Shown: one piece after another, positions 8,246-33,618 of the stretch | How the letters are laid out: the number at the start of each line of letters is the position of its first letter | Position numbering within the stretch: position 1 is the first letter of the stretch | From: an uncultured Eubacterium sp. | GTDB lineage: Bacteria > Bacillota > Clostridia > Oscillospirales > CAG-272 | Assembly (NCBI GenBank): GCA_900544285.1 | Contig: UQUT01000001.1 | Coordinates: 59,004 to 123,003, forward strand | Reading direction: 5' to 3' | Length of the DNA stretch: 64,000 nt | The notes under the pieces: model-generated | Seen by the model: only the letters and a program-made list of their open reading frames with translations | Told to the model about the DNA's origin: nothing | Database searches by the model: none | Position numbers and translations under genes: made by a program

Positions 8246-8280
8246 AAAAAGCCCGGTTTCGTCAACCGGGCTTTTGCTTT
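8246..8280 (-). terminator. intrinsic terminator ending the int-mobC-like transcript
   Basis: gcccggtt tcgtc aaccgggc forms the hairpin, with an A-run on the plus strand (a T-run on the minus strand). Confidence 0.5.
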
Positions 8281-8608
8281 ATACGCTTGTCTTGACATAC
8301 AGGTTATCAACGATTCCCATAATCAATTCTATGTTAGACATTAGCTCATCACCTATATTTTCGCCGCTTCCAATGCGCTGCAATTCTACTAACACCTCAT
8401 TGAGCTTATCGTAAACGGCTCGATGTATTTTGCAGTTGCCCTGAACATAAATCTTCCTATCGAGTAATTTAGATACAATGTAGTCCTGTTTGGTCATTCC
8501 CGATAGTTCAACAACAGTGTTGATTTGATGATCTTCCTCTGATGAAACCCGAAACCCGATTGTCCTATCCCGAAACCTGTTGTGCTTATCGCAATTTTTG
8601 GCTGACAT
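8279..8608 (-). CDS. MobC-like ribbon-helix-helix relaxosome accessory protein (tentative)
   Basis: 109 aa. RTIGFRVSSEEDHQINTVVELSGMTKQDYIV resembles the MobC N-terminal RHH, and LQRIGSGENIG loosely resembles the MobC LxRIGNNLNQ motif. It starts 4 nt after the int stop. Confidence 0.4.
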   Translation of the reverse strand: MSAKNCDKHNRFRDRTIGFRVSSEEDHQINTVVELSGMTKQDYIVSKLLDRKIYVQGNCKIHRAVYDKLNEVLVELQRIGSGENIGDELMSNIELIMGIVDNLYVKTSV

Positions 8609-8612
8609 ATTT

Positions 8613-9719
8613 TTACCCCCTTCTTAGGCTGTCAAGGTCGTTGGCGATTGTTCTTTGAACTTCATCGAATAGATGGCCATAAATGTCCTGCGTGGTTTTA
8701 ACAGATTTATGCCCTATTCGCTTCGATACCTCGAAAATATCGTACTTCTTACTGATTAACAAGGAAACGTGGGAATGGCGTAAACCGTGAACGGTTATCC
8801 TTTTCAGTCCTGCCTCCTGCGTCATATTTTGAAAATTCTTTGTCAGGGTAGACTTTGTAATCTGGAAGATACGCTGATCCGGTTCCGGTTCATATAGCAT
8901 ATCAATATATTCCCTGAGTTCATCGCAAAGGAAAGCAGGCATACTCACTTTTCTAACCGAACTCGGAGTTTTAGGAGTGCTGATTACATCTTGTCGGCCT
9001 ACTCTCTGATAGGTCTTATTAACGGTAATAATCCCTTCCTCCAAGTCAATGTCATTGAGAGTCAAGGCAAGCATTTCGCCTTCTCTGAGGCCACACCAGT
9101 AAAGAACTTCAAAAGCATAGTAGTAATGAGGATTCTGCATAGCGTAGTAGGCAAATTTTTCGTATTCGTCTGCACTCCAGAACTCGACTCTCTTATCCTT
9201 AATGCCCATATTTTTGATGTCAGCAAGGGGGTTTAATTTGAGATACCCCTTGCTGTGAGCATAGTTGATAACCGAATTGAACTGGCTCTGGATTGTTCTA
9301 AGGAACGCCTTAGAGAGAGGTTTCCCGTCCGGTTTGACAACGCTTTTCATTTTAGCCTGCCACGCTGCAATATCATCATCTGTTATATCCGCAATCGGCG
9401 TATCCCGAAAAGTCGGAAAGATGTGCTTTTCAAAGACGTTGTGTTTCGTTCTCAGGGAGGATTCTTTAATATCCTCCCGCTTATGCGACATAAGGTATTC
9501 CTGAAAAACGTCCTCAAATGTTCTCTCATAAGGTGCTTCTTCCTCCTCATTCTCTGCGGTGAGATTTTCAAGAAAATTCTCCTCATAGTCCTTTGCTTCT
9601 CGCTTGCTGTCAAAACCACGCTTGTATTCGGTTTGCGTGGTTCCAGTGTTCGGATCGACATAATTGAATTTTGCAAGCCACTTAACACCCTTTTTTACCT
9701 GATACTTATACTGCGGCAT
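8613..9719 (-). CDS. int: tyrosine site-specific integrase, Tn916 Int family
   Basis: The N-terminal arm-binding domain reads YKYQVKKGVKWLAKFNYVDPNTGTTQTEYKRGF. The C-terminal catalytic region reads HGLRHSHVSLL...GH...Y. Confidence 0.9.
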   Translation of the reverse strand: MPQYKYQVKKGVKWLAKFNYVDPNTGTTQTEYKRGFDSKREAKDYEENFLENLTAENEEEEAPYERTFEDVFQEYLMSHKREDIKESSLRTKHNVFEKHIFPTFRDTPIADITDDDIAAWQAKMKSVVKPDGKPLSKAFLRTIQSQFNSVINYAHSKGYLKLNPLADIKNMGIKDKRVEFWSADEYEKFAYYAMQNPHYYYAFEVLYWCGLREGEMLALTLNDIDLEEGIITVNKTYQRVGRQDVISTPKTPSSVRKVSMPAFLCDELREYIDMLYEPEPDQRIFQITKSTLTKNFQNMTQEAGLKRITVHGLRHSHVSLLISKKYDIFEVSKRIGHKSVKTTQDIYGHLFDEVQRTIANDLDSLRRG

Positions 9720-9733
9720 ATCGCTCGCCTCCT

Positions 9734-9943
9734 TTACTCATCGTCTGTTTGGATTTTTTCTTCAGGTGGGAAGAACCGTTTTGTTAGATACAAAGAATCA
9801 ACCTTGCCTTGAAGCGTTAAATAGCCTGATTTTTCAAGTTCTTTGTTCAAGCGGTCGATTATCTTGTAGGCATACGAGGCTGAAATACCAAGAATTTCAG
9901 CTACCTGTTCAGCGTTAATCAATTTTCTTGTATTGGATTCCAT
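9734..9943 (-). CDS. xis: excisionase (Xis-Tn916-like HTH)
   Basis: 69 aa from the internal ATG at 9943 (MESNTRKLINAEQVAEILGISASYAYKIIDRL). It lies immediately upstream of int, as in Tn916. Confidence 0.7.
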   Translation of the reverse strand: MESNTRKLINAEQVAEILGISASYAYKIIDRLNKELEKSGYLTLQGKVDSLYLTKRFFPPEEKIQTDDE

Positions 9944-10078
9944 ACTGTACCTCCATAAGCATTTCATTCTCAATCGCCTCCTTTTGTGTGGATTTGATTG
10001 TATTGTATTTGAACCTTCTGCAAACGGCAATTATGCGATTTGGGCAATCGCATAATTGCTATCTGCGCCACCTTCGAC

Positions 10079-10633
10079 TTATTTCGTGGGCGGCTTTTCA
10101 GATCTATCCCGAACAACATATTCAAAGCCCGAGTTATCGCATTTGTCGCATTTCTGCTTGATTTTCGCAAAGGGATCATACCGCTTCACAATATAGTCGG
10201 GATTTGATTTGTAGTCTTGCAGGCACCTGCCGCATAAGCACCGGATTTCGCCTTTGTGCTGCGGCTTGTAAACCCACACGCCGAGAGCTTTTTTCAGGCC
10301 ATTGTTAATCCTGCGGAAAACATTATCATCATCAACGATTCCGATATAGCTTACGAGATCTGCCTGATTGATTGTTTTGAGCTGCTCGAGCATAACCATT
10401 GAAGGCTCTCTCAGTCCGAAGCGGTCGCCCAAGATAATATGCGAGGGCAGATACCGCTTCTTTATTGCTGAGGTTAGAGCCGCAATCACGGTTGTCGTAC
10501 TTGCCTGATTTCCTTCATCGCACTGCACGACAAGGACGGGGCGGAGTCCGTTTTGCATAGAGCCTTCATTTTTACCAAAGTCATAAAGGTAAATTTCTCC
10601 ACGCTTTACTTTCTGATTTTCGTTGGTCGCCAT
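10079..10633 (-). CDS. MazF/NdoA (EndoA)-like endoribonuclease toxin domain fused to a C-terminal Cys4 zinc ribbon
   Basis: Residues 10-120 (KRGEIYLYDFGKNEGSMQNGLRPVLVVQCDEGNQASTTTVIAALTSAIKKRYLPSHI...MLEQLKTI) align closely with B. subtilis NdoA. The ~65-aa tail contains CLCGRC...CDKCD. No antitoxin ORF fits in the 67-nt upstream gap. Confidence 0.7.
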   Translation of the reverse strand: MATNENQKVKRGEIYLYDFGKNEGSMQNGLRPVLVVQCDEGNQASTTTVIAALTSAIKKRYLPSHIILGDRFGLREPSMVMLEQLKTINQADLVSYIGIVDDDNVFRRINNGLKKALGVWVYKPQHKGEIRCLCGRCLQDYKSNPDYIVKRYDPFAKIKQKCDKCDNSGFEYVVRDRSEKPPTK

Positions 10634-10700
10634 AATGTATACCTCTCATTTTTAGTATTTGAAAGGTGTTTCGCTGCCGGCTATGAAACAAGTCCCTTCA

Positions 10701-11291
10701 CTAATTCCCAGTGGCACCCCCGTTTTGGTCGGGTGTTTCATAAAACTTTTTGAAATTTTTTATCGCAGATACCAACGATTCGTGGATAGAGGTCTTAGAT
10801 TTACCTTCTTTTTCGGCTATATCCCGTTCAGGTATTTTGTAGATACAGGAAAGGATCAGCCGCCTTCTTTGAGGTTCAGTCAGCATACTCAACGCCTTAT
10901 ATAGCCTTTGATTTCTAAGTTGCAGGTTTTCGATTTCAAACTTTTGCGTAATATAATCGGGAGTAGTTAATTCAGCGTGAAAAGCCTCGCTAACTCCCTC
11001 ATCGTAACCATATGAATCCTCGCAGTTGTTCTGACGGTAGGCATATTTCTTTTCGTTTCTGATATAGTCCCTTCGGATTTCTCTGACTTCGGAATCAAGA
11101 ACGATAAAGGGAGTGTGTGCCGCAATCTGTTCCGGGTATCTTTCAAGAATTTCTCTCTCGGTCAGATGTGAAATAACCGCCCACTTAGGCTCGCCTATGA
11201 ACCCGGGATACTCATACCTCAAATTGATAACTTTGCAGTCATCGGCAAATTGTTCTTCAATGCTTCTTTCGTTTTCAATATTTGTAGACAT
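10701..11291 (-). CDS. sigma-70 region 4-like HTH protein (Tn916 Orf7-like regulator)
   Basis: C-terminal LTEPQRRRLILSCIYKIPERDIAEKEGKSKTSIHESLVSAIKNFKKF is a sigma r4 HTH. I chose the internal start MSTNIENER (ATG at 11291). It sits in the position of orf7 relative to xis and int. Confidence 0.5.
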   Translation of the reverse strand: MSTNIENERSIEEQFADDCKVINLRYEYPGFIGEPKWAVISHLTEREILERYPEQIAAHTPFIVLDSEVREIRRDYIRNEKKYAYRQNNCEDSYGYDEGVSEAFHAELTTPDYITQKFEIENLQLRNQRLYKALSMLTEPQRRRLILSCIYKIPERDIAEKEGKSKTSIHESLVSAIKNFKKFYETPDQNGGATGN

Positions 11292-11605
11292 TTCCGTAAT
11301 CTCCTTGAATTTGAATTTTGTTGGTGAGAACAAAATTCGGAGATCACGGATACCTACATATAAATGCCTGCCACGCTGATATAGACATAGAAACCCCTTC
11401 CGCTTAGCAAAGCGAAAAGGGCTTCTACACAAAAAACAGCCATAGCTTCCAAGATGAACACCTGAAAGCTATGACTGCTTCTTCTTATTCATATTCAATT
11501 CGTTCTGCCTAAGCTACTTGTGTTACTGCCATTAAGGTATAGTAGCTGAAACTGAAATTTCAAGAAAACATTTCATATTTCTCGGCATACCGATTATATC
11601 AGGTC

Positions 11606-11631
11606 GGTTTTACCGTGTCATCGGCAAAACC
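11606..11631. repeat. inverted-repeat hairpin (10-bp stem, 6-nt loop) in a long intergenic region
   Basis: ggttttaccg tgtcat cggcaaaacc, with one G:A mismatch. Confidence 0.5.
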
Positions 11632-11730
11632 CCGCCAATTTGTAGGCATTTTCTTTTCAGCTTCCACTCATACCCTCGATTCACGCCAAAGGCCGTGCTT
11701 CGGGCAGCATACACAGTGTAGCACAAGCAA

Positions 11731-11786
11731 AGTCGGACAATCAGTAGGGATTTAGTCGGACAATGGTCGGACATTAGTCGGACAAG
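11731..11786. repeat. array of 4 direct GTCGGACA repeats (iteron-like)
   Basis: Copies lie at 11732, 11755, 11766 and 11777, spaced 23, 11 and 11 nt. The last copy overlaps the stop of the 11774-12358 gene. Confidence 0.6.
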
Positions 11787-12358
11787 CTTTTGCTCACGAA
11801 GAAATCTGGAATTTCACCGCACATATCAACCTCCTCAATCTGAAATATTCCTTTGAAATAAGGAATCGCATACCCCCATAGGGAAACGCCGAGAAGCATA
11901 ACCGCCTCTTTTTTTCGGTCGTAAAAGGTACTGCGCTCCATATTCAACAATTCAAGCAGTTCGCTTTCGGTGTAGCGAAAAGCCGTGAGATAGCTCTTGG
12001 ATAGTATCTCGTGATAAAGTTTTCCGTTGTTGTGGTAATCGTAGATTTTCCCCATAGCCGTATCTATGAGGTCAATCATCCACTTATTTTCAAACAAGCT
12101 GCATACCCGGTTCTCGAACTCCTGACGCTCTATATCCGGGGCAAACTGCTCTAAATAGACGAGGGCGCTGTTCAGGTCATCCCCGTAATAGATGATTTCT
12201 TCATTTAACCCCTCAGACTTGTTCAGGGTTATCCATACAACATCCCGGTACACACCGAGAAGCATTTTCGTCCTATGCAGTATATCTTCCCGATCCAAGC
12301 GTAACTGCTCGTACATTTTTTGAATCGTCTTAACTGCGACTGTATCTTTTCTTCCCAT
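11774..12358 (-). CDS. hypothetical protein with a C-terminal HTH-like segment (possible ArpU/sigma-r4-like regulator)
   Basis: 194 aa. LNMERSTFYDRKKEAVMLLG looks like a helix-turn-helix. Confidence 0.4.
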   Translation of the reverse strand: MGRKDTVAVKTIQKMYEQLRLDREDILHRTKMLLGVYRDVVWITLNKSEGLNEEIIYYGDDLNSALVYLEQFAPDIERQEFENRVCSLFENKWMIDLIDTAMGKIYDYHNNGKLYHEILSKSYLTAFRYTESELLELLNMERSTFYDRKKEAVMLLGVSLWGYAIPYFKGIFQIEEVDMCGEIPDFFVSKSLSD

Positions 12359-12439
12359 TAGCTCTCCTTATCCGTAAAAAACCGGGCATACTAAAAAGAT
12401 GTTTGGTTTATCGTATCGTGTGTGAAAAAAGTTTCCTGA

Positions 12440-12590
12440 CATTTTTTTGAACTCTCTTGACAAAACACGCAACTTGCGGTATTATATTTACGCAACTTAC
12501 TTGCGTATTGACATTATACGAAATTAACTTGCGCTTGTCAATAGGGACACGCAATATAATTTCAGAAATGTGCGAACTATTTGGAGGGCG
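12440..12590 (+). promoter_or_regulatory. stacked sigma-A-type promoters with palindromic operator sites upstream of the XRE (ImmR-like) gene
   Basis: TTGACA 12458-12463 is followed 16 nt later by TATTAT 12480-12485, with further TTGACA and TTGTCA boxes. Palindrome CGCAAnnTTGCG occurs at 12468-12478, a spaced variant at 12491-12505, and half-sites at 12527-12554. Confidence 0.5.
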
Positions 12591-12595
12591 TAAAA

Positions 12596-13003
12596 ATGAA
12601 ATTCTGCGAAAAAATAAGGGAAGCCCGCAAAAATGCAGGCTTGAAGCAAGACGAGTTTGCAAAAGCAATCGGTGTTTCTCTTAGAACAGTATCCAACTAC
12701 GAATCCGGCGAAAGGTATCCCAAAAAACGGGAAACCTATTATAAGATAGCCGAAGTCCTGAAGGTCGATGTCAACTATCTGCTCACCGATGACGAGGAAT
12801 TTCTGCTCGAGGCAGAAGCGAAGTACGGCACCAAAGGCGCAAGGCAGGCAAAAGCGCTCGTGGCAGAAGTAAGCGGTCTGTTTGCAGGCGGCGAACTTGC
12901 GGACGAAGATCTGGACGAAATGATGAAGGGCATTCAGGAAGCTTACTGGATCGCCAAAGAGAAAAACAAGAAGTACACCCCCAAAAAATACCGCAAAGAG
13001 TAA
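12596..13003 (+). CDS. XRE-family HTH repressor (ImmR-like)
   Basis: MKFCEKIREARKNAGLKQDEFAKAIGVSLRTVSNYESG is a Cro/CI HTH. GGAGGG precedes the ATG at 12596. Confidence 0.8.
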   Translation: MKFCEKIREARKNAGLKQDEFAKAIGVSLRTVSNYESGERYPKKRETYYKIAEVLKVDVNYLLTDDEEFLLEAEAKYGTKGARQAKALVAEVSGLFAGGELADEDLDEMMKGIQEAYWIAKEKNKKYTPKKYRKE

Positions 13004-13086: not shown

Positions 13087-13602
13087 TTGGATATTCAAAC
13101 ATTAGAAATTGTAAAAAAGGCCAATCGGCTTGTAAATGAGCTTGGTACACGCAATCCGCACAGAATGGCACGGGAACTTGGAATAGCGGTTATCCCGTTG
13201 GATTTTAAGCGGCAGCGTGGTGCATATAAAGTTTTAATGCGAAATCGTTTTATCTTCATCAAAAGCGATCTGCACCCGGTAATGGAAAATATCGTAATGT
13301 TTCACGAGATCGGACACGACACATTACATAGAGAGGAAGCAATCCGGGCAGGCGGCTTTAAGGAGTTCAATATCTTCGATATGCGGGAAAGCCGTATGGA
13401 ATATGAAGCGAACATCTTTGCCTCACAAATCTCCCTGCCGGACGATGAAATCCTTGAATATATTGAGCAGGGATATGATACTCAGCAAATCGCACGGGCT
13501 ATGTGTTCGGATATTAACTTGGTTGCCTTGAAAACAGACACGCTTATCGCACAGGGCTATTGTCTGCGCCATCAGGAATATCGCAATCGGTTTTTGAAAT
13601 AG
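13087..13602 (+). CDS. ImmA/IrrE-family zinc metallopeptidase (anti-repressor protease)
   Basis: The HEIGH motif FHEIGHDTLH is present. TTG start sits 7 nt after GGAGGTG. It lies directly downstream of the XRE repressor, as in ICEBs1 immR-immA. Confidence 0.8.
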   Translation: MDIQTLEIVKKANRLVNELGTRNPHRMARELGIAVIPLDFKRQRGAYKVLMRNRFIFIKSDLHPVMENIVMFHEIGHDTLHREEAIRAGGFKEFNIFDMRESRMEYEANIFASQISLPDDEILEYIEQGYDTQQIARAMCSDINLVALKTDTLIAQGYCLRHQEYRNRFLK

Positions 13603-13611
13603 ATTAACGGA

Positions 13612-15033
13612 ATGGAGAAACCCATTATGAGATATACACTTGAAGAACTATGTACCAAAAAGGAAAATCAGGTCTTTGACCGCAAAAGTGCAAGAAAAGA
13701 CGCCAAAGGATTATCCAATCATATTGTAGCCTTCGCCAATGCGGACGGAGGTACACTTGTTATTGGCGTAGAGGACAACGGCGAAATAACAGGAATTGAC
13801 GCATACACCAACAATATCAATGATATTCTGCGGGTTCCCTTTGACTACTGCAATCCTTCGGTAAGGGTAACTACCGAAACAGTTGAGTGCAAAGACAAGG
13901 ACGGAAATCTGAACCATCTTCTGATTATGACGATTCCCCAAAGTTCTGAGCTTCACGCCAATCAGCAGGACGAGGTTTATTACCGTATGGGTGATAAGTC
14001 AAAGAAACTAAACTTTGATGAGCGCTTGCAGCTTATGTATGCCAAAGGTTCCCGTTACTATGAAGATGAGCCTGTGTTCCGGTCTACGTTAGATGACATT
14101 GATATGGATTTCGTCGCCGAATACTGTAAGAAAATCGGCTACACGAAATCCCCGGAAGAATACATCAGGCAGAACAAAGACTATATTGTAAAGCACGACG
14201 GTCGAGAGGAAATGAGTGGGGCTGCGCTTCTTCTTTTCGGGGCAGATCCACAGCGTTTCTTCCCGAGAGCAAGGGTGCGCTTTATCCGCTATGACGGAAC
14301 AGAAGCCAAGGTCGGCACACAGATGAACGTCATCAAAGATGAGGTTTTCTCCGGTCGTATTCTGGATATGGTTCAGCAGGCGCTTGATTTCGTCCGCAGT
14401 CAAATCAAGGAACGCACTCGGCTCGGCGGCGATGGGCGGTTTGTTACTACGCCCGAATACCCTGAATTTGCTTGGAAAGAAAGCATTGTGAATGCTGTTG
14501 CCCATCGTGATTACAGTATCAAAGGAACCGACATTCAGATTAAAATGTTTGATGACCGGATCACCGTTGAAAGCCCCGGTATTTTACCCGGTATCGTCCG
14601 GCTGAGTAATCTGCGAACCGTACATTTCTCCCGCAATCCAAAAATCGCTGAATTTTTACACCAATATGACTACGTGAAAGAGTTTGGCGAAGGCGTTGAC
14701 CGAATGTTCAAAGAAATGGAAAATGCGGGGCTTCCCGCACCTGAATACAGCGATAATGTCTTTATGCTTAATGTGACGATACGAAATGGGGCAATAAATG
14801 AGAAAAGCGGGGTAATAAATGGGGCAATAAATGGAGCGATAAATCTATCGTCTACCGAAAGGGCAGTTCTCGAAGCAATAATCGACACTCCGAACATTAC
14901 AAAGGAAAAATTGCAAATAGTAACTTCGCTCGGAAAAGGTACAATCGACCGAGCCATCAAAACATTGAAAGAAAAAGAAATTATCAAGCGGGTTGGTTCT
15001 AACAAGAATGGATATTGGGAAATGCTGAAATGA
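13612..15033 (+). CDS. Schlafen-like AlbA_2 (divergent AAA) + HATPase_c_4 + winged-HTH protein (COG2865-like ATP-binding regulator)
   Basis: The N-terminal FANADGGTLVIGVEDNG matches AlbA_2, the middle region NAVAHRDYS...TVESPG matches HATPase_c, and the C-terminal LSSTERAVLEAI...KEKLQIVTSLGKGTIDRAIKTLKEKEIIKR is a winged HTH. The in-frame repeat GAINEKSGVINGAINGAIN lies at 14786-14842. Confidence 0.7.
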   Translation: MEKPIMRYTLEELCTKKENQVFDRKSARKDAKGLSNHIVAFANADGGTLVIGVEDNGEITGIDAYTNNINDILRVPFDYCNPSVRVTTETVECKDKDGNLNHLLIMTIPQSSELHANQQDEVYYRMGDKSKKLNFDERLQLMYAKGSRYYEDEPVFRSTLDDIDMDFVAEYCKKIGYTKSPEEYIRQNKDYIVKHDGREEMSGAALLLFGADPQRFFPRARVRFIRYDGTEAKVGTQMNVIKDEVFSGRILDMVQQALDFVRSQIKERTRLGGDGRFVTTPEYPEFAWKESIVNAVAHRDYSIKGTDIQIKMFDDRITVESPGILPGIVRLSNLRTVHFSRNPKIAEFLHQYDYVKEFGEGVDRMFKEMENAGLPAPEYSDNVFMLNVTIRNGAINEKSGVINGAINGAINLSSTERAVLEAIIDTPNITKEKLQIVTSLGKGTIDRAIKTLKEKEIIKRVGSNKNGYWEMLK

Positions 15034-27782: not shown

Positions 27783-29354
27783 TCAGTGACATCTTTTACA
27801 CGGCGTATATCCCATACTTTGAGCTTCTTCGAGTGTCACCTGACGGGGATTTTTCATATTACTACAGCTTGAATAGCTATGATATTTTGAGCCAGAAGAA
27901 GGTATCCATACCATTTCCGTTACTTCATCGTCCGGCTCGGGTTCTGTATAGAGGGGCGGATCTTCTTCCGGCACGACGGTACTGGAAGGTGGGTTGACTG
28001 TTTCTGGCTCACTTGGAGTGGTTGGCACGGTTTCTGAGCTTTCAGGCTCATCAGACTTATCCTCTCCATATATGCCCAACTCACCGATATTTAAGGTTTC
28101 AACGCTCACCTTGTCATTATAACAATTTATCTTGAATGAAGCGTCTGTATCGTTTGTAATATTCAAATCCACCGAACCGTTAACAGAATCCGAGTCTGCA
28201 CTACAGAAATTAAGTGTATATTTCCCTGATTTAATTCTGTACTCAAATTCACCATCTTCTCCGTGCTTCAATGTTTCTGTATGACCGTCAATTTCCATTT
28301 TAACATCATAAGTGCTGAATATTAGATTTGGGACAAAATCAATTTCAATTTTGAGAGTATATTTTTCATATGGTTTATGTGTAACAATCTTCACCTCAGC
28401 GTTAGGAGGAAAAGTTGCATTTTTATCAAAAGTTTCTGTTCCGTTAATGGAAATAAGGTTTTCAAAGGTGGATTCTGTTATATCTGGATCAAGGTCAAAC
28501 GCTTCATCTGTCATTATTTCCATAAATCCCGCTTCATCAAATGCCTCGATAATCAATTCTGTATCCATACTCTTGGCCTCATCAGAAGAAAACGGAACGC
28601 CAATATTCTTAAATGAATGATATGTAATGACTATTTTCGATGAATTCTTAAACTCAACATTTCCTTCAAAGTCAGATACACCATTAATCGAAACAGATTC
28701 AACAATACCATCCCTATCCGCTTCTGAGATTTCTAAATCTTCAATTACTCCCAAAGAAATATTAGTAAAGCCAGACCGCCGAAAATCGTCCTTTACTATT
28801 TCGTATTCTTTTCCTATGCACTCTTTCGCACTATACGGAGTATCAACATTAAAAAAGTTCTCATAGGTTGGAATGTTTGTAGGAGACTTATTAAGCCAAG
28901 AATAACTCGAGATATACGGCACTACAAGCACTATGGATACGGCAAGAATCAAATATTTTAGCCAAGCTTCATTATACTTAATTTTTCCTTTATGTAAAAG
29001 CAAAGCTACAACCAACCCGCATAGTTGCAGTACAGAAAAAATGATTGGAGGAACCTTTCCATTACCTAATGCAATTAATAAAAGAAACGCAGATACGGAT
29101 ATCGCAATGGTCTCAATTTTGCAGAATAGATCTATTTTGTTCCAATAATCTGTAAATTTCCCCTTCGCTTTATTAGCAATAGATGGCTTTCGAGCCAAAG
29201 GGGTAGATGTAATCTGAGGCGCACTTTCTTTTTTATCCGGTTCTCCCTTATATTTTGCAGATGAAACGAACGTTTCCGTTTCAACTTTCATCCCGCAAAA
29301 TGGGCAAAAGTTAGAATCCTTTTTAAGTTCAGCACCGCATTTAGAGCATTTCAT
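27783..29354 (-). CDS. membrane protein: N-terminal zinc ribbon, 3 TM, large extracytoplasmic region, C-terminal Ada-type Cys4 module
   Basis: The N-terminus reads CSKCGAELKKDSNFCPFCG and TM helices follow. The C-terminus reads KYHSYSSCSNMKNPRQVTLEEAQSMGYTPCKRCH, which shares the pattern of the Ada_Zn_binding domain (yCRPSC...aGfRPCKRC). Confidence 0.5.
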   Translation of the reverse strand: MKCSKCGAELKKDSNFCPFCGMKVETETFVSSAKYKGEPDKKESAPQITSTPLARKPSIANKAKGKFTDYWNKIDLFCKIETIAISVSAFLLLIALGNGKVPPIIFSVLQLCGLVVALLLHKGKIKYNEAWLKYLILAVSIVLVVPYISSYSWLNKSPTNIPTYENFFNVDTPYSAKECIGKEYEIVKDDFRRSGFTNISLGVIEDLEISEADRDGIVESVSINGVSDFEGNVEFKNSSKIVITYHSFKNIGVPFSSDEAKSMDTELIIEAFDEAGFMEIMTDEAFDLDPDITESTFENLISINGTETFDKNATFPPNAEVKIVTHKPYEKYTLKIEIDFVPNLIFSTYDVKMEIDGHTETLKHGEDGEFEYRIKSGKYTLNFCSADSDSVNGSVDLNITNDTDASFKINCYNDKVSVETLNIGELGIYGEDKSDEPESSETVPTTPSEPETVNPPSSTVVPEEDPPLYTEPEPDDEVTEMVWIPSSGSKYHSYSSCSNMKNPRQVTLEEAQSMGYTPCKRCH

Positions 29355-29615
29355 TTGCTATCCCTCCTTTTACACTCTCAGTTTTGTTCTGTTGGCGCAA
29401 CAGGCGGTATAAGTATTTAACCATTATAAACATCCTTTCTCTTTGTATTATTATGTTCTTCAAAATCTGAAGGCACACCACAATTCGCATAGAATCTGGC
29501 ACCGCCTTGAATTTGATCTCCACAGTTTGAACCGAATGCTACTATAGCTCACCATCTCTCCTTTATATTTCTGAATTCGCCAAGATTGTTTCATCGTTCT
29601 TGACTTATTTTTTGC

Positions 29616-30656
29616 TTATGGGTGGCAGTTACCGCAGGGATCATAGCCTCGAGCAATTACATCGTCTCGGCTTCCTGTAAAATATTCCTTATTGCTCTCT
29701 TTCATTCGGCCTACCGATGAGCAGGAAGGATAGTGGAATTTCTTTGTGTTTTTATTAAGAATATACGTGGTTTCCTGCTTGTTTTCTTCCGGTTGCTGAT
29801 TTACAGTCGGTTGTTCTTCATTTGGCACTTCTTTCGATCCGCCTATATAAGAACTTTCGCCTGTCGCATAGTCTATTGAGATCTGCGGCTGCGCATTGTA
29901 AACAAAGACATTGAAACAAATACCGTCGCCATCATCTTCAACAGAATACGCTTCCATTTGAACCCCGTTGGCGACAAGGTTTTTCCCGTCGTAGATAGGA
30001 GTAACCCGATAGAGGACGTGGTAATTTGTTTCCTTTACGAAGTCGGCAACCATATTCTCGAATGGCAGCATACCATCAACATTCATATACCGAGTACCTG
30101 TTATCAGATTCTTCGTATTCGCATTCTCTCCACTTAGCTGAAAACCGATTAAATGGCAGCGGTTATATAGGTACTTTCCGTCAACGCAATCATATTTAAC
30201 CGTGTGCCATCCGGTAGGCTTGACCTGCCCGATACTCCCACGATCTTCGGTTGGCATTAAATCTTGACCAATGCAGGCCATCGCAATTCCACATCTGCCG
30301 AGGTTGTCAAGGTCGCTATAATATTCATACGATTGCGTCGTATAATCATCATCGCTGAAATACGGCACATTATCGTTGACTGCCACATAGGGCGATCCTG
30401 CGAAAGCAGGAATACTCGACAACGAGACTGCTTTATTTTCGGTTGGTATAGAGGGCTTTTCAGTAGGCGTTGAATCTGTGCTGACTTCCGGTTCTGAGTC
30501 CGGTATTGATTGTTCGCTCTCGGTTGGTTTCGTCAGCTCAATACTCGACGATGAATCCGATATATCAGAACTTATTTCATCAGGGATTTCACCGCACCCG
30601 GAAAAGATAATGCTCACCGCCAGAAGAAGCGATAAAAGCCACGTCATTTTCTTCAT
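29616..30656 (-). CDS. lipoprotein DNA/RNA non-specific endonuclease (EndA/NucA-like) with a C-terminal Ada-type Cys4 module
   Basis: The lipobox reads MKKMTWLLSLLLAVSIIFSGC. NRCHLIGFQLSGENANTKNLITGT is a DRGH-type beta-beta-alpha-Me nuclease motif. The C-terminus KFHYPSCSSVGRMKESNKEYFTGSRDDVIARGYDPCGNCHP matches the tail of the 27783 product. Confidence 0.7.
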   Translation of the reverse strand: MKKMTWLLSLLLAVSIIFSGCGEIPDEISSDISDSSSSIELTKPTESEQSIPDSEPEVSTDSTPTEKPSIPTENKAVSLSSIPAFAGSPYVAVNDNVPYFSDDDYTTQSYEYYSDLDNLGRCGIAMACIGQDLMPTEDRGSIGQVKPTGWHTVKYDCVDGKYLYNRCHLIGFQLSGENANTKNLITGTRYMNVDGMLPFENMVADFVKETNYHVLYRVTPIYDGKNLVANGVQMEAYSVEDDGDGICFNVFVYNAQPQISIDYATGESSYIGGSKEVPNEEQPTVNQQPEENKQETTYILNKNTKKFHYPSCSSVGRMKESNKEYFTGSRDDVIARGYDPCGNCHP

Positions 30657-31060
30657 TTTTCAAAAATCTCCTTTGTTATTTTTTCGTGCGATTTTCCCGT
30701 GAACTCGAATAAAGATACCGATTTGAAGCCGTTTTGTGTCGGCTCAAAATCGAGCTGATAATCGCTCGGATATTTTCGATTCCACCAATAGACAATAATC
30801 CTATCAATTTCATTCAAATGCTCTTTTACCGAGAAGTTCTCAATAAAATAATCTGCTTCATCTTTTCCCTCAACGGGGAAATGGTCGAAAAGGGTGTAGC
30901 GGATACCCGCCGACGAAATGAGTTTTTCAGAAAATTTATTTATAAACAGATTGCCGTTAAGAGAAGCCCCTATATCTTCAAGAATTTTCTCGTCACGGCT
31001 GAGCCGCCTATGATTGAACAGCATACCCTTGTTGTCATCTAAAAGAAAAATAACGGTCAT
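30653..31060 (-). CDS. small cytoplasmic hypothetical protein, translationally coupled to the nuclease (candidate nuclease inhibitor or immunity protein)
   Basis: 135 aa from ATG 31060, preceded by GGGAGGTG. Its stop overlaps the nuclease start (ATGA). No signal peptide is present. Confidence 0.4.
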   Translation of the reverse strand: MTVIFLLDDNKGMLFNHRRLSRDEKILEDIGASLNGNLFINKFSEKLISSAGIRYTLFDHFPVEGKDEADYFIENFSVKEHLNEIDRIIVYWWNRKYPSDYQLDFEPTQNGFKSVSLFEFTGKSHEKITKEIFEK

Positions 31061-31300
31061 TGAAACACCTCCCACGAATAGTGATAATTACGCTATACAG
31101 CATAAAAATAAGCAGACCGTCAAAACACAAATCGAATCGACGGTCTGCTTCATATTCAAAACGAAACAAGTGAAAATAGTGTAAGTAGAAATATGATTTT
31201 ACGGCTCATTTTCTCCTCCATATTTACTCAATGTCTCATTTCGCATATGGTTCTTGTATGCAGCGTCGTTCAGGTAATGTCTTGACTGAAACTGTTCCTT

Positions 31301-32701
31301 TTATTCAGGCTGAGGAACAGGAGGAATCGGAGGTGCGGGTGGAACCGTACCGAACAACGCTTGCAGTTCGGGAACTGTTTCCGCCACCATCCAATTTGCC
31401 ATTCCTTGCTTCCAGACAAGACTCTGCTTTGTAAATGTTCCAGCAACAACCATCTGCGACAAGGTTCCAATATCATACGGGCCAGTTGTCTGCCCGTTTA
31501 TTGCAATATGGAAAGAGACTGTTGGAATTGGAGGAGGAACCATACCTGCCTGCGGTGGCATTGCACCGCTTTGTGGTTGGTTCATTCCATTCATCATATT
31601 GTTCATTGTGCCTGCAATATTTTGGCCAACGGCACCGCCTACTGCCATTCCTGCCATCATAGCAGCAGGATTAAAGCCTGCACCGCCCCCACCTAAATCA
31701 ACTCCGCCTGCACCGTTAGCGCCCATCTGCCCCAAAGCGTTAGCACCTGCAACACCAACATCTGTTTGAGCTTCAACTTGGTAAGCAGCAAAATTAGCTG
31801 TTTGAGTCGCTTTGTGTTGAGCATAAGCCCCTTCTTCACGCTGAATACGAAGTGATTCCTCATAGTTGAGAGCTTCAATTCTTTGCTTATCTTCAATATT
31901 TTTAATTTGAGCGGCAGCTTGCGCTCTCGTTGTAGCGGCACTAACCTCTTGGGTTACGCTCATAAGCTGACGATAACCGTCACTTGATTTATCCAAGTCA
32001 ATAGCCGAAATATCAACGCCGGACACGTCCACCCCAAAATCTTGGCGTAATCTCTGCGAAAGAGCTTTTTCAACTATATCGTTGATTTCTGCGGTCTTGC
32101 GTTCAATCTGAATTACGGGAATATTATACTCGGCAGGGGCATTTGCAACTGTATTTTTCACATTTCTTATAACAGCGTCTTTAATCTGATTTTGAAAATT
32201 TGTCAATGTAAATTCTGCAAGCCTATGCAGTTTGATAAACTCCTGATAATCAGATATTTTGAAGCTGATTGTACCACGAACAGCCGTTGGTACTCCAAAA
32301 TCCAAGAAACGAGGATCATATACATCAAAAAATGGAACACCAAACTTCACCTGAATAATGTGCGCAAGATTGATGAAATATACCTCTGCTTGGAACGGGG
32401 TTCCGCCTTCAAAAGCTAACCCAACTAAGCTCGCAAGAACAGGCAGGTTCGCCGTCTTTATCGTTTGGTCAAACGGGCCGACGATGAAATCCTGCATTGT
32501 TCCATTTTCTTGTTTATAGACAAAGACCGCAACTTCACCGTCTTTGACTCTTAACGATGAACCCCAACGAATAGCATTTTCTCGATTATTGTTTCCTTTT
32601 TCTGAACCTACCGGATGCCACTTCCAAATCAAATATGACGGCTCATCACAGCGAATTTCATCCATAAATCCGCCTGCTTTGGGTTTATTAAACAATGCCA
32701 T
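31301..32701 (-). CDS. SPFH/band-7 domain protein with a G/M/N/Q-rich low-complexity linker and a C-terminal DUF4339 (GYF-like) domain
   Basis: The N-terminus reads MALFNKPKAGGFMDEIRCDEPSYLIWKWHP, a COG4260-type SPFH. The C-terminus reads FHIAINGQTTGPYDIGTLSQMVVAGTFTKQSLVWKQGMANWM. I chose the internal start at 32701. Confidence 0.6.
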   Translation of the reverse strand: MALFNKPKAGGFMDEIRCDEPSYLIWKWHPVGSEKGNNNRENAIRWGSSLRVKDGEVAVFVYKQENGTMQDFIVGPFDQTIKTANLPVLASLVGLAFEGGTPFQAEVYFINLAHIIQVKFGVPFFDVYDPRFLDFGVPTAVRGTISFKISDYQEFIKLHRLAEFTLTNFQNQIKDAVIRNVKNTVANAPAEYNIPVIQIERKTAEINDIVEKALSQRLRQDFGVDVSGVDISAIDLDKSSDGYRQLMSVTQEVSAATTRAQAAAQIKNIEDKQRIEALNYEESLRIQREEGAYAQHKATQTANFAAYQVEAQTDVGVAGANALGQMGANGAGGVDLGGGGAGFNPAAMMAGMAVGGAVGQNIAGTMNNMMNGMNQPQSGAMPPQAGMVPPPIPTVSFHIAINGQTTGPYDIGTLSQMVVAGTFTKQSLVWKQGMANWMVAETVPELQALFGTVPPAPPIPPVPQPE

Positions 32702-32754
32702 AAAAATACCTCCTAAAATTTTTTGATTTCTGCTCTCTAACACAAGCCGTACCA

Positions 32755-33618
32755 TCATTTGATTTTTATTTTCAGTTCCTTCATTTTGTCAAAATACATC
32801 TTTTGGATTCCGGCAAAAGCAGGATCATTAGGGAATACTATTTCTGCCTTTTTATACACCTGTTCCATTTTTGCTACCCACGCATTACTGATTGTTCTGC
32901 CAATAGTCGCACCCGTTTCGGCTTGACCATTACTATTGATTCGGTTTGTAAATGTGTTTTTAGACAAACTCACATCAATATTGGCAATAGCAAGCATCAT
33001 AAATTCTAAACAGTCATCAATAGAGTTAGGAATAGGAAAATTTCTTATCAATGAAAGTTTTTGAACATCTGCCTTATCTGCTGCAAGATAAACGCTTAAT
33101 GCACCGCCTAATCCCTTTTTTCGAGATCCTTCAATCGCCATTAGCTGATCCTTAAATGCCTGAACGGATGATACCGCCGCCCTTCCAGTTATTCTTACGC
33201 CACAATCTGGGCAAATAGCTGTTGTCTCGCTGATAACACTTCCGCAATTCGGGCACTTGAAAATCTTTCCGACAAATTCCTGCTGCCTTTGGGAAGGGTT
33301 CGGCTGAGGCGGGGTAGGTGGTGTTTCTTGTGCGGCCGGGGTAGACGTTGTGCCAACCGGCGCACCACATCCGTGGCAGAATTTTGCGCCCGCATTAAGT
33401 TTTGTGCCGCAGTTAGAGCAGAACATATATGTACCCTCTTTCTTTGTAGTATCGGATTGATATGAAATGTTCTCATCTTCATTCCCATCATCGGAATCAT
33501 TATCCGAAATACTTTCGATTTTTGCTTGAACTTTTCCAATGGTGGATTGAATATCAAACGGTAATGCACCTGAAAGCCCTTTCAAAAGTCCTTTTTTCTC
33601 TTTGCTCATAATTTTCAC
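32755..33618 (-). CDS. double zinc-ribbon protein
   Basis: CSNCGTKLNAGAKFCHGCG and CPNCGSVISETTAICPDCG are followed by a ~150-aa domain I cannot assign. Confidence 0.5.
   Translation of the reverse strand: MKIMSKEKKGLLKGLSGALPFDIQSTIGKVQAKIESISDNDSDDGNEDENISYQSDTTKKEGTYMFCSNCGTKLNAGAKFCHGCGAPVGTTSTPAAQETPPTPPQPNPSQRQQEFVGKIFKCPNCGSVISETTAICPDCGVRITGRAAVSSVQAFKDQLMAIEGSRKKGLGGALSVYLAADKADVQKLSLIRNFPIPNSIDDCLEFMMLAIANIDVSLSKNTFTNRINSNGQAETGATIGRTISNAWVAKMEQVYKKAEIVFPNDPAFAGIQKMYFDKMKELKIKIK

Follow-up and report, generated by a model that had tools for sequence, protein, structure and literature searches.

MazF toxins are a paradigm of two-gene toxin-antitoxin systems, and a gene of this family that stands without an antitoxin gene among the excision genes of a mobile element raises the question of how such an enzyme is controlled and what it does there. 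A gene of this kind is found in a 64,000-nucleotide (nt) stretch of DNA from an uncultured Eubacterium sp. of the Clostridia (assembly GCA_900544285.1, contig UQUT01000001.1, positions 59,004 to 123,003), hereafter called the window. Its product of 184 amino acids (aa) joins an N-terminal MazF/PemK endoribonuclease domain to a C-terminal, putatively zinc-binding tail, here termed ZnR, and is encoded between a gene for a protein resembling Orf7 of Tn916 and the excisionase gene xis. An initial annotation, made from the sequence of the window alone, had described an orphan MazF/NdoA-type toxin fused to a Cys4 zinc ribbon in the orf8 slot, and had offered three readings: the tail acts as a cis antitoxin or regulator, an antitoxin is supplied from elsewhere, or the domain has been co-opted for a regulatory role tied to excision. 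The comparison of related loci given below turns this framing round, since it points not to a toxin with a tail, but to a protein of the excision module to which a toxin has been added.

A MazF-type domain with an intact active site

The N-terminal part of the fusion protein matches the Pfam family PemK_toxin (PF02452) over profile positions 1-108 of 109 (E 1.8e-22; 80 bits against a cutoff of 23.1). Its best sequence matches in the PDB are B. subtilis EndoA/YdcE (4mdx, 1ne8; E ~1.5e-20 over aa 9-116), followed by other Gram-positive MazF proteins, in agreement with the EndoA-like character proposed at the outset. Identity to EndoA is ~45% over the same residues, the LEQ substrate loop of B. 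subtilis-type MazF is kept, and R31 and T54 align with R25 and T48 of B. subtilis MazF, which are reported to be essential to catalysis (PMC10893535). Both are unchanged in all 27 aligned homologues, so that the catalytic residues, whose loss the initial annotation had considered, are present. In the wider family, comprising 73 unique fused proteins, R31 is found in 65 and T54 in 64, and the equivalents of S19, Q21, S73, E78 and Q79 are kept to a similar degree; taken together, catalytic and RNA-contact positions are retained in about 88-95% of these members across wide divergence, with only a few divergent members lacking the catalytic Arg or Thr. Furthermore, in the 27 aligned homologues the MazF domain is better conserved than the tail. 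This pattern indicates strong purifying selection on a domain whose active site is intact, and the fusion protein is therefore probably an active RNase. By sequence and catalytic residues it belongs to the MazF/PemK family.

Absence of an adjacent antitoxin gene

The fusion open reading frame (ORF) starts with ATG, 8 nt downstream of the Shine-Dalgarno sequence GAGAGG (10642-10647, minus strand). The Orf7-like gene ends 67 nt before this start codon, a gap that leaves no room for an antitoxin, as had been noticed initially. No antitoxin family was detected by Pfam in the neighbouring genes of the window, and of 28 alternative small ORFs on both strands of 9769-12681 none is MazE-like or matches any other antitoxin family. 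An adjacent co-transcribed gene of MazE/PemI type, with an AbrB or ribbon-helix-helix fold, is absent; the upstream gene instead encodes the 196-aa Orf7-like protein with its sigma-70 region 4. With no adjacent antitoxin found in this search, the locus departs from the canonical MazEF module, and the database label "type II toxin-antitoxin system PemK/MazF family toxin" is misleading in that it implies a partner that is not present. The NikA-like ribbon-helix-helix protein encoded at 8279-8608 was considered as a MazE-like antitoxin and rejected, because it tracks the type of integrase, also in neighbouring elements without MazF, and is absent with other integrases. Across 63 related loci, in which ORFs were called anew, the Orf7-like gene is the only one that regularly accompanies the fused MazF.

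The tail as an autonomous, putatively zinc-binding domain

The tail comprises aa 117-184 (68 aa) and holds five Cys residues, C132, C134, C137, C162 and C165, all of which are invariant in the 27 aligned homologues and at least 98% conserved in 114 homologues. When the tail was modelled alone with AlphaFold2, the mean predicted local distance difference test (pLDDT) score was 81.6, with a core above 90 that forms a strand-helix-strand-strand arrangement; the model of the full-length protein was poor overall (pLDDT 64.6), yet its tail region reached 80-91. Across the ZnR family C134, C162 and C165 show little or no variation, C137 is exchanged only for His, and C132 is Thr or Ser in two members. 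Because of these replacements, C134, C137 (His in some relatives), C162 and C165 are the presumed zinc ligands, giving a putative site of four conserved Cys/His ligands in two pairs. The Cys4 part of the earlier description thus stands as a prediction; the term zinc ribbon does not, as the tail is not recognisable as a classical member of that class and no structural or sequence likeness to described zinc-ribbon families was found. Searches with the tail likewise gave no above-threshold match in Pfam, none in PHROG or PADLOC and no significant sequence match in the PDB. A sub-threshold Pfam match to the Fin anti-sigma-F family was seen in three of 35 tail members; the tail lacks an HxxxCxxC motif, and its predicted fold is unlike the helical ZAS anti-sigma domain.

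A profile of the tail alone, run against 1.84 billion cluster representatives (50%-identity clusters), gave 422 matches at E <=1e-3. Among the 150 matches listed, 54 also carry a MazF domain, ~32 are complete stand-alone tail proteins of 57-100 aa with the motif (D/E)(I/V)RCLCxxCxxDY...(K/R)R.DP...C(D)KC...GYDY, and many others are fragments or chimeric gene calls. In a neighbour-joining tree (~55 positions) fused and stand-alone tails are interleaved. Given the complete stand-alone proteins, the tail is an autonomous domain that represents a family without earlier description, and the stand-alone ZnR family, with no relative in Pfam or the PDB, merits a description of its own. Many metagenomic gene calls (P0121-P0140, P0164, P0186 and P0222) fuse unrelated N-termini, including ParA, ParB, a type IV secretion system ATPase and the 194-aa protein, to the tail with or without the final 20 aa of MazF; they reflect either chimeric assembly or genuine deletion junctions in such elements.

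A conserved slot upstream of the recombination genes

Homology searches with the fusion protein gave 543 matches, more than 100 of them full-length (178-192 aa, 62-99% identity), and the exact protein of the window is on record in 408 contigs. The database comparison that the initial annotation had proposed for such fusions therefore yields a sizeable family, and with more than 100 full-length homologues and 422 tail-bearing clusters the fusion is not a chance event. When a single genome was scanned for each species, 61 loci came to light, almost all of them in Clostridia (Oscillospirales, Lachnospirales) and Erysipelotrichaceae. Matches that hinted at a phage origin did not hold: record MT835788, labelled "Bacteriophage sp.", covers the terminal part of an integrative element beside chromosomal genes, and a Listeria "phage" match is a canonical alr-mazF locus without the tail. 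A plasmid search with the sigma-like protein returned a single record. In the literature no account was found of a MazF zinc-domain fusion or of its association with an excision module.

In the window and six near-identical contigs the genes are ordered ImmR-like HTH_3 repressor and ImmA-like M78 peptidase (on the opposite strand), 194-aa protein, 196-aa sigma-like protein, MazF-ZnR, Xis, Int and NikA-like protein. A homologue of 70% identity lies in the order HTH_3, 192-aa sigma-like protein, MazF-ZnR, three Tn916-type Xis and a Tn916-type Int, some relatives (L007-L011) have Tn916-type Xis and Int, and at 44% identity a Monoglobus record has a sigma-70 family gene, PemK/MazF, four helix-turn-helix (HTH) genes and an integrase. 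Over the 63 loci, the nearest upstream gene on the same strand is an Orf7-like homologue in 53, at a gap of 0-103 nt, and most of the loci in which it was not detected look like contig ends, pseudogenes or ORF-calling artefacts. Downstream, a tyrosine recombinase follows within four genes in 34 of the 63 and a large serine recombinase in nine, and in many loci the fusion gene and the gene after it overlap at stop and start codon, amounting to translational coupling. The order Orf7-like gene, (MazF-)ZnR, xis/RDF, recombinase thus recurs across at least three unrelated recombination modules.

The same slot is also filled by the tail alone, in proteins of 57-82 aa. Stand-alone ZnR genes follow a sigma-like gene of 172 aa (L016; ZnR of 78 aa), a 181-aa gene (L085; 72 aa) or a Sigma70_r4_2 gene (L088; 70 aa), in each case ahead of HTH_17 and Int genes. 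In L019 a sigma-4 protein of 205 aa, a ZnR of 61 aa and an HTH_17 protein are encoded with overlapping stops and starts, and in L014 a ZnR of 67 aa is encoded with a serine recombinase two genes further downstream. The profile made from proteins that accompany the fused form also aligns with the partners of stand-alone ZnR along their entire length (E 1e-35 to 3.5e-44). Gene order and homology thus indicate that the conserved unit is the Orf7-like regulator plus ZnR, directly upstream of whichever excision and integration genes are used by a given integrative (conjugative or mobilisable) element of gut Clostridia. Since stand-alone ZnR occupies the same slot with the same partner family, they also indicate that ZnR is the native occupant and MazF an N-terminal addition in a large subfamily. 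The proposal that the tail is a cis antitoxin is weakened by the same observation, because the tail has a job where no toxin exists, so that neutralising MazF is unlikely to be its primary one.

A UACAU motif at the ribosome-binding site of the fusion gene

MazF enzymes of the B. subtilis, S. aureus and C. difficile group cleave at a site with the core UACAU (PMC10893535), and in the window this motif lies between the Shine-Dalgarno sequence and the AUG of the fusion gene itself. The same placement, at slightly varying offsets, is found in 20 of 32 distinct upstream regions, which come from mutually related homologues, and the regions with the motif (related loci L012, L024 and L032-L070) include lineages at only 44-57% protein identity. 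UACAU is as frequent in these upstream regions as the Shine-Dalgarno pentamer, against a background of 1.9% in generic segments between Shine-Dalgarno sequence and ATG of the same loci, and it occurs in none of four distinct upstream regions of stand-alone ZnR genes examined. The motif before the AUG may be a site of self-cleavage or autoregulation.

Organisation of the module and its neighbourhood

The features of the module are collected in Table 1. In the Orf7-like protein the likeness to sigma region 4 is limited to the C-terminal 60-80 aa, and region 4 was the only sigma region detected, with no match to region 2. The N-terminal domain of ~70 aa is conserved and without known relative, and the protein also has an acidic, aromatic linker; a comparison of fused and stand-alone partners found no Orf7-like feature specific to fused loci. 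The 194-aa protein is not universal in related loci.

Table 1. Genes, domains and candidate regulatory sites of the excision module in the window.
Feature	Position	Strand	Description
NikA/MobC-like ribbon-helix-helix protein	8279..8608	-	Coupled to int
Tyrosine integrase (Int)	8613..9719	-	Arm-DNA-bind_4, SAM-like and Phage_integrase domains
Excisionase (Xis), ICEBs1-Xis-like HTH	9734..9943	-	Read from ATG at 9943; NCBIfam E 1.3e-11
Inverted repeat, 14-bp perfect	10020..10066		Between fusion gene and xis; GCAATTATGCGATT-N5-AATCGCATAATTGC
MazF-ZnR fusion gene	10079..10633	-	184 aa; NCBI MFQ7593298.1, labelled PemK/MazF family toxin, Acutalibacteraceae metagenome-assembled genome
Tail domain core	10106..10249	-	aa 129-176; strand-helix-strand-strand (predicted); RCLCxxCLxxYK...R(R/K)xDP...CDKCxxxGYDY
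MazF/PemK endoribonuclease domain	10286..10606	-	aa 10-116; Pfam PemK_toxin
UACAU, core of B. subtilis-type MazF cleavage site	10635..10639	-	Between Shine-Dalgarno and AUG of fusion gene
Orf7-like protein	10701..11291	-	196 aa from ATG; N-terminal domain plus sigma-70 region 4
Terminator-like hairpin, 20-bp stem	11434-11480	-	In 342-nt leader upstream of Orf7-like gene
Promoter-like site	11593-11621	-	11/12 matches, ATGACA-17-TATAAT with TG
194-aa protein	11774..12358	-	Weakly matches phage transcriptional activators; opens the minus-strand operon
Divergent overlapping promoters (consensus matches) with inverted repeat	12457..12563		Minus: 12513-12541, 12/12 matches, TTGACA-17-TATAAT; plus: 12457-12485
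Inverted repeat	12520-12563		Overlaps divergent promoters between ImmR-like gene and minus-strand operon
ImmR-like HTH_3 repressor	12581-13003	+	Pfam
ImmA/IrrE-like M78 peptidase	13087-13602	+	Pfam

The region of the divergent promoters looks like a candidate genetic switch of the element, and the leader hairpin may be an attenuator or an antitermination target. The repeat between the fusion gene and xis has counterparts of the form CAATTATGCGAT-N5-7-ATCGCATAATTG, with compensatory changes in the arms, in four of five diverged relatives (L040 1385-1415, L043 4580-4610, L051 4753-4821 and L037 4779-4817); it might serve as operator, RNA hairpin or attenuator. Scans of the module with Rfam and for tRNAs gave no match, nor did PADLOC detect a known defence system in it.

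Directly after the ImmA-like gene, 13612-15033 (plus strand) encodes a 473-aa protein with Schlafen AlbA_2 and HATPase_c_4 domains that matches a pAgo-associated model of PADLOC (E 3.9e-49), which makes the gene a candidate for defence cargo. On the other side, the block common to the six near-identical contigs stops at ~8040 of the window, and no direct repeat that could mark att sites was found. In some metagenome contigs a second small element with integrase, NikA-like protein, AAA_25 and Mob_Pre relaxase genes lies in tandem past the int end (L002 12810-18500, L004 12816-18520), which, together with the shared block end, suggests an insertion hot spot. Farther away, a cluster at 27783-33618 (minus strand) encodes zinc-ribbon/DZR membrane-type proteins, a DNA/RNA non-specific endonuclease and an SPFH/GYF_2 protein, all unrelated to MazF-ZnR. 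A separate conjugative module spans about 35500-64000, with a CHAP-domain protein, a sortase, a VirB4-like ATPase, a VirD4 coupling protein, a MobA/VirD2 relaxase and an ORF of more than 2800 aa that runs past the window end; this module may mobilise the MazF-ZnR element, which encodes the NikA-like protein but no relaxase.

A proposed role in excision and its alternatives

The explanation that we favour, at a probability of roughly 0.4, is that a MazF-type RNase has been grafted onto ZnR and takes part in the induction programme of the element, being made with the Orf7-like protein, Xis and Int, docked via ZnR, and acting on host and element transcripts in excision. The operon would be silent while the element is integrated; once the ImmR-like repressor is removed, the RNase would be produced together with the other proteins of the module, and ZnR would dock it to a partner in the module, for which the Orf7-like protein or the nucleic acid that it targets is the most likely candidate. 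MazF activity set free in this way would cut UACAU-type sites, so that host translation and growth are slowed or transcripts are reshaped in the excising cell, and the RNase may limit itself by cutting its own message between the Shine-Dalgarno sequence and the AUG. Control would be exerted through transcriptional repression and partner binding, not through a dedicated MazE. Of the three readings offered initially, co-option for element regulation tied to excision fits best with the Orf7-like gene upstream and xis and recombinase genes downstream; the mechanism itself we infer.

Several observations count against this proposal. The promoters and terminators called in the module are consensus matches only. 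About 12 of the 32 distinct homologues are without the UACAU motif, and where it is present at the ribosome-binding site the sixth base is usually U (UACAUU, as at 10634-10639 of the window), while the 6-mer reportedly required by MazF of B. subtilis is UACAUA (bioRxiv 10.64898/2026.08.06.743204). In the fusion ORFs of the homologues TACAT is enriched rather than depleted, for which conserved Tyr-Ile dipeptides may be the reason, and a self-protection signature, that is a depletion of UACAU or ACA in the element genes, was not seen, the expected counts in the window being too low to tell. Furthermore, the adjacency of the genes suits binding of ZnR to DNA, to RNA or to Xis/Int equally well as to the Orf7-like protein, and a free MazF without a protein inhibitor would be unusual.

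A more far-reaching proposal, which we regard as tentative and rather doubtful, is that the Orf7-like protein and ZnR form a novel two-component switch for excision across Clostridial elements, of a sigma/anti-sigma-like or an activator/co-factor kind. The fused form would double as a circuit resembling a toxin-antitoxin system, in which the Orf7-like protein restrains the RNase via ZnR and its release on excision arrests or reprograms the donor, with auto-limitation at the ribosome-binding site of the fusion gene.

If the two genes were instead an addiction module, the Orf7-like protein would be a labile DNA-binding antitoxin that docks on ZnR, and the pair would stabilise the element after excision or loss. 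The upstream position, the DNA-binding domain and the co-occurrence in 53 of 63 loci do resemble type II pairs, and the linker of the partner could mimic RNA in the MazF groove. However, the same partner family stands beside stand-alone ZnR without a toxin and is homologous to the toxin-less Orf7 of Tn916, no feature of the partner is specific to fused loci, and the genes are usually 60-100 nt apart and not coupled, so that we consider an addiction module unlikely.

It is quite unlikely, in our view, that the fusion is an orphan toxin neutralised in trans by the MazE of the host, or one that titrates host MazE and thereby activates host MazF. Such cross-talk is conceivable for a domain that is ~45% identical to EndoA with conserved surfaces, cross-neutralisation among MazE/MazF pairs of the UACAU type is documented (PMC10893535), and manipulation of host MazEF by phages is documented in work cited by a preprint (bioRxiv 10.64898/2026.08.06.743204), but the hosts span many families of Clostridia and Erysipelotrichaceae, each of which would need a compatible MazE.

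A single-chain, self-inhibited toxin-antitoxin protein like CapRel or EzeT, in which the zinc tail masks the RNase until a trigger, for instance infection by a phage, arrives and the gene is abortive-infection cargo, appears improbable. That no separate antitoxin was found, that the tail is tightly conserved with the MazF domain and that the defence-like Schlafen/ATPase gene lies nearby would all suit such a protein; by contrast, the tail occurs alone in the same slot and thus has a function independent of MazF, PADLOC gave no match, and the conserved spot lies inside the xis/int operon and not in a cargo region or defence island. Finally, that MazF is no longer a toxin, and is only an RNA-binding or dimerisation module for ZnR or a neutral relic, is highly improbable, since the few members without the catalytic Arg or Thr and the truncated copies in L082-L084 stand against the retention of catalytic and RNA-contact positions in most members and a MazF domain that is better conserved than the tail.

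What the locus presents is a large conserved MazF subfamily without adjacent MazE, which has a putative zinc-binding domain not described before and is set among the excision genes of integrative elements. Should induction release the RNase, these elements would have a built-in link between the excision decision and host growth or translation, and the module would offer an entry to the poorly understood Orf7/Orf8-type regulatory modules of Tn916-like elements.

Comparison with known systems

With B. subtilis MazF (EndoA/NdoA, YdcE) and the UACAU-cleaving group the fusion protein shares the fold family and the active-site features described above. Unlike B. subtilis mazF, which lies in the chromosomal alr-mazEF-rsb locus, the fusion gene has no upstream mazE/ndoAI, encodes the additional zinc-binding C-terminus and belongs to the excision operon of a mobile element. 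CapRel-SJ46 and EzeT are single polypeptides with a small C-terminal domain (zinc-finger-like in CapRel) and no separate antitoxin gene. MazF-ZnR resembles them in combining a toxin domain with a small C-terminal domain in one chain; it differs in that its tail is also a free-standing gene in the same slot and that its locus is a recombination operon, not a defence island. The switch of ICEBs1 has in common with the window an HTH_3 repressor and an M78 anti-repressor protease beside an ICEBs1-type Xis; to our knowledge, ICEBs1 has no sigma-like, ZnR or MazF genes between switch and xis.

A tie between a life-cycle decision and MazF RNase activity is also found in the SPbeta-family arbitrium phages, which, according to a preprint and references therein, exploit host MazEF (bioRxiv 10.64898/2026.08.06.743204), whereas the element described here encodes a MazF of its own.

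The closest parallel in gene order is Tn916, with orf9-orf7-orf8-(canT)-xis-int. The regulation in the window is ImmR/ImmA-like, unlike that of Tn916, its Xis is ICEBs1-like and its Int has an Arm-DNA-bind_4 domain, in place of the Tn916-type Xis (PF09035) and Int (Integrase_DNA), and the Orf7-like protein has an extra N-terminus of ~70 aa that Tn916 Orf7 lacks. The tail is not a homologue of Tn916 Orf8, to which BLASTP found no similarity and which has no Cys, nor of the Cys-rich Orf6, to which there is neither BLASTP similarity nor a Cys_rich_KTR match. The orf8 slot named in the initial annotation is thus a matter of position only. The homology of the upstream gene is real at the level of profiles: the profile of the partner proteins matches Tn916 Orf7 with E 4e-11 over aa 23-137 (22% identity and E 1e-4 in a pairwise comparison). 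Tn916 has the antiterminator canT and terminators between its small gene and the xis region (PMC11658703), and a structured or palindromic element lies at the matching position in the window, within the order that both systems share of HTH repressor, Orf7-like sigma-4 protein, small gene, xis and int.

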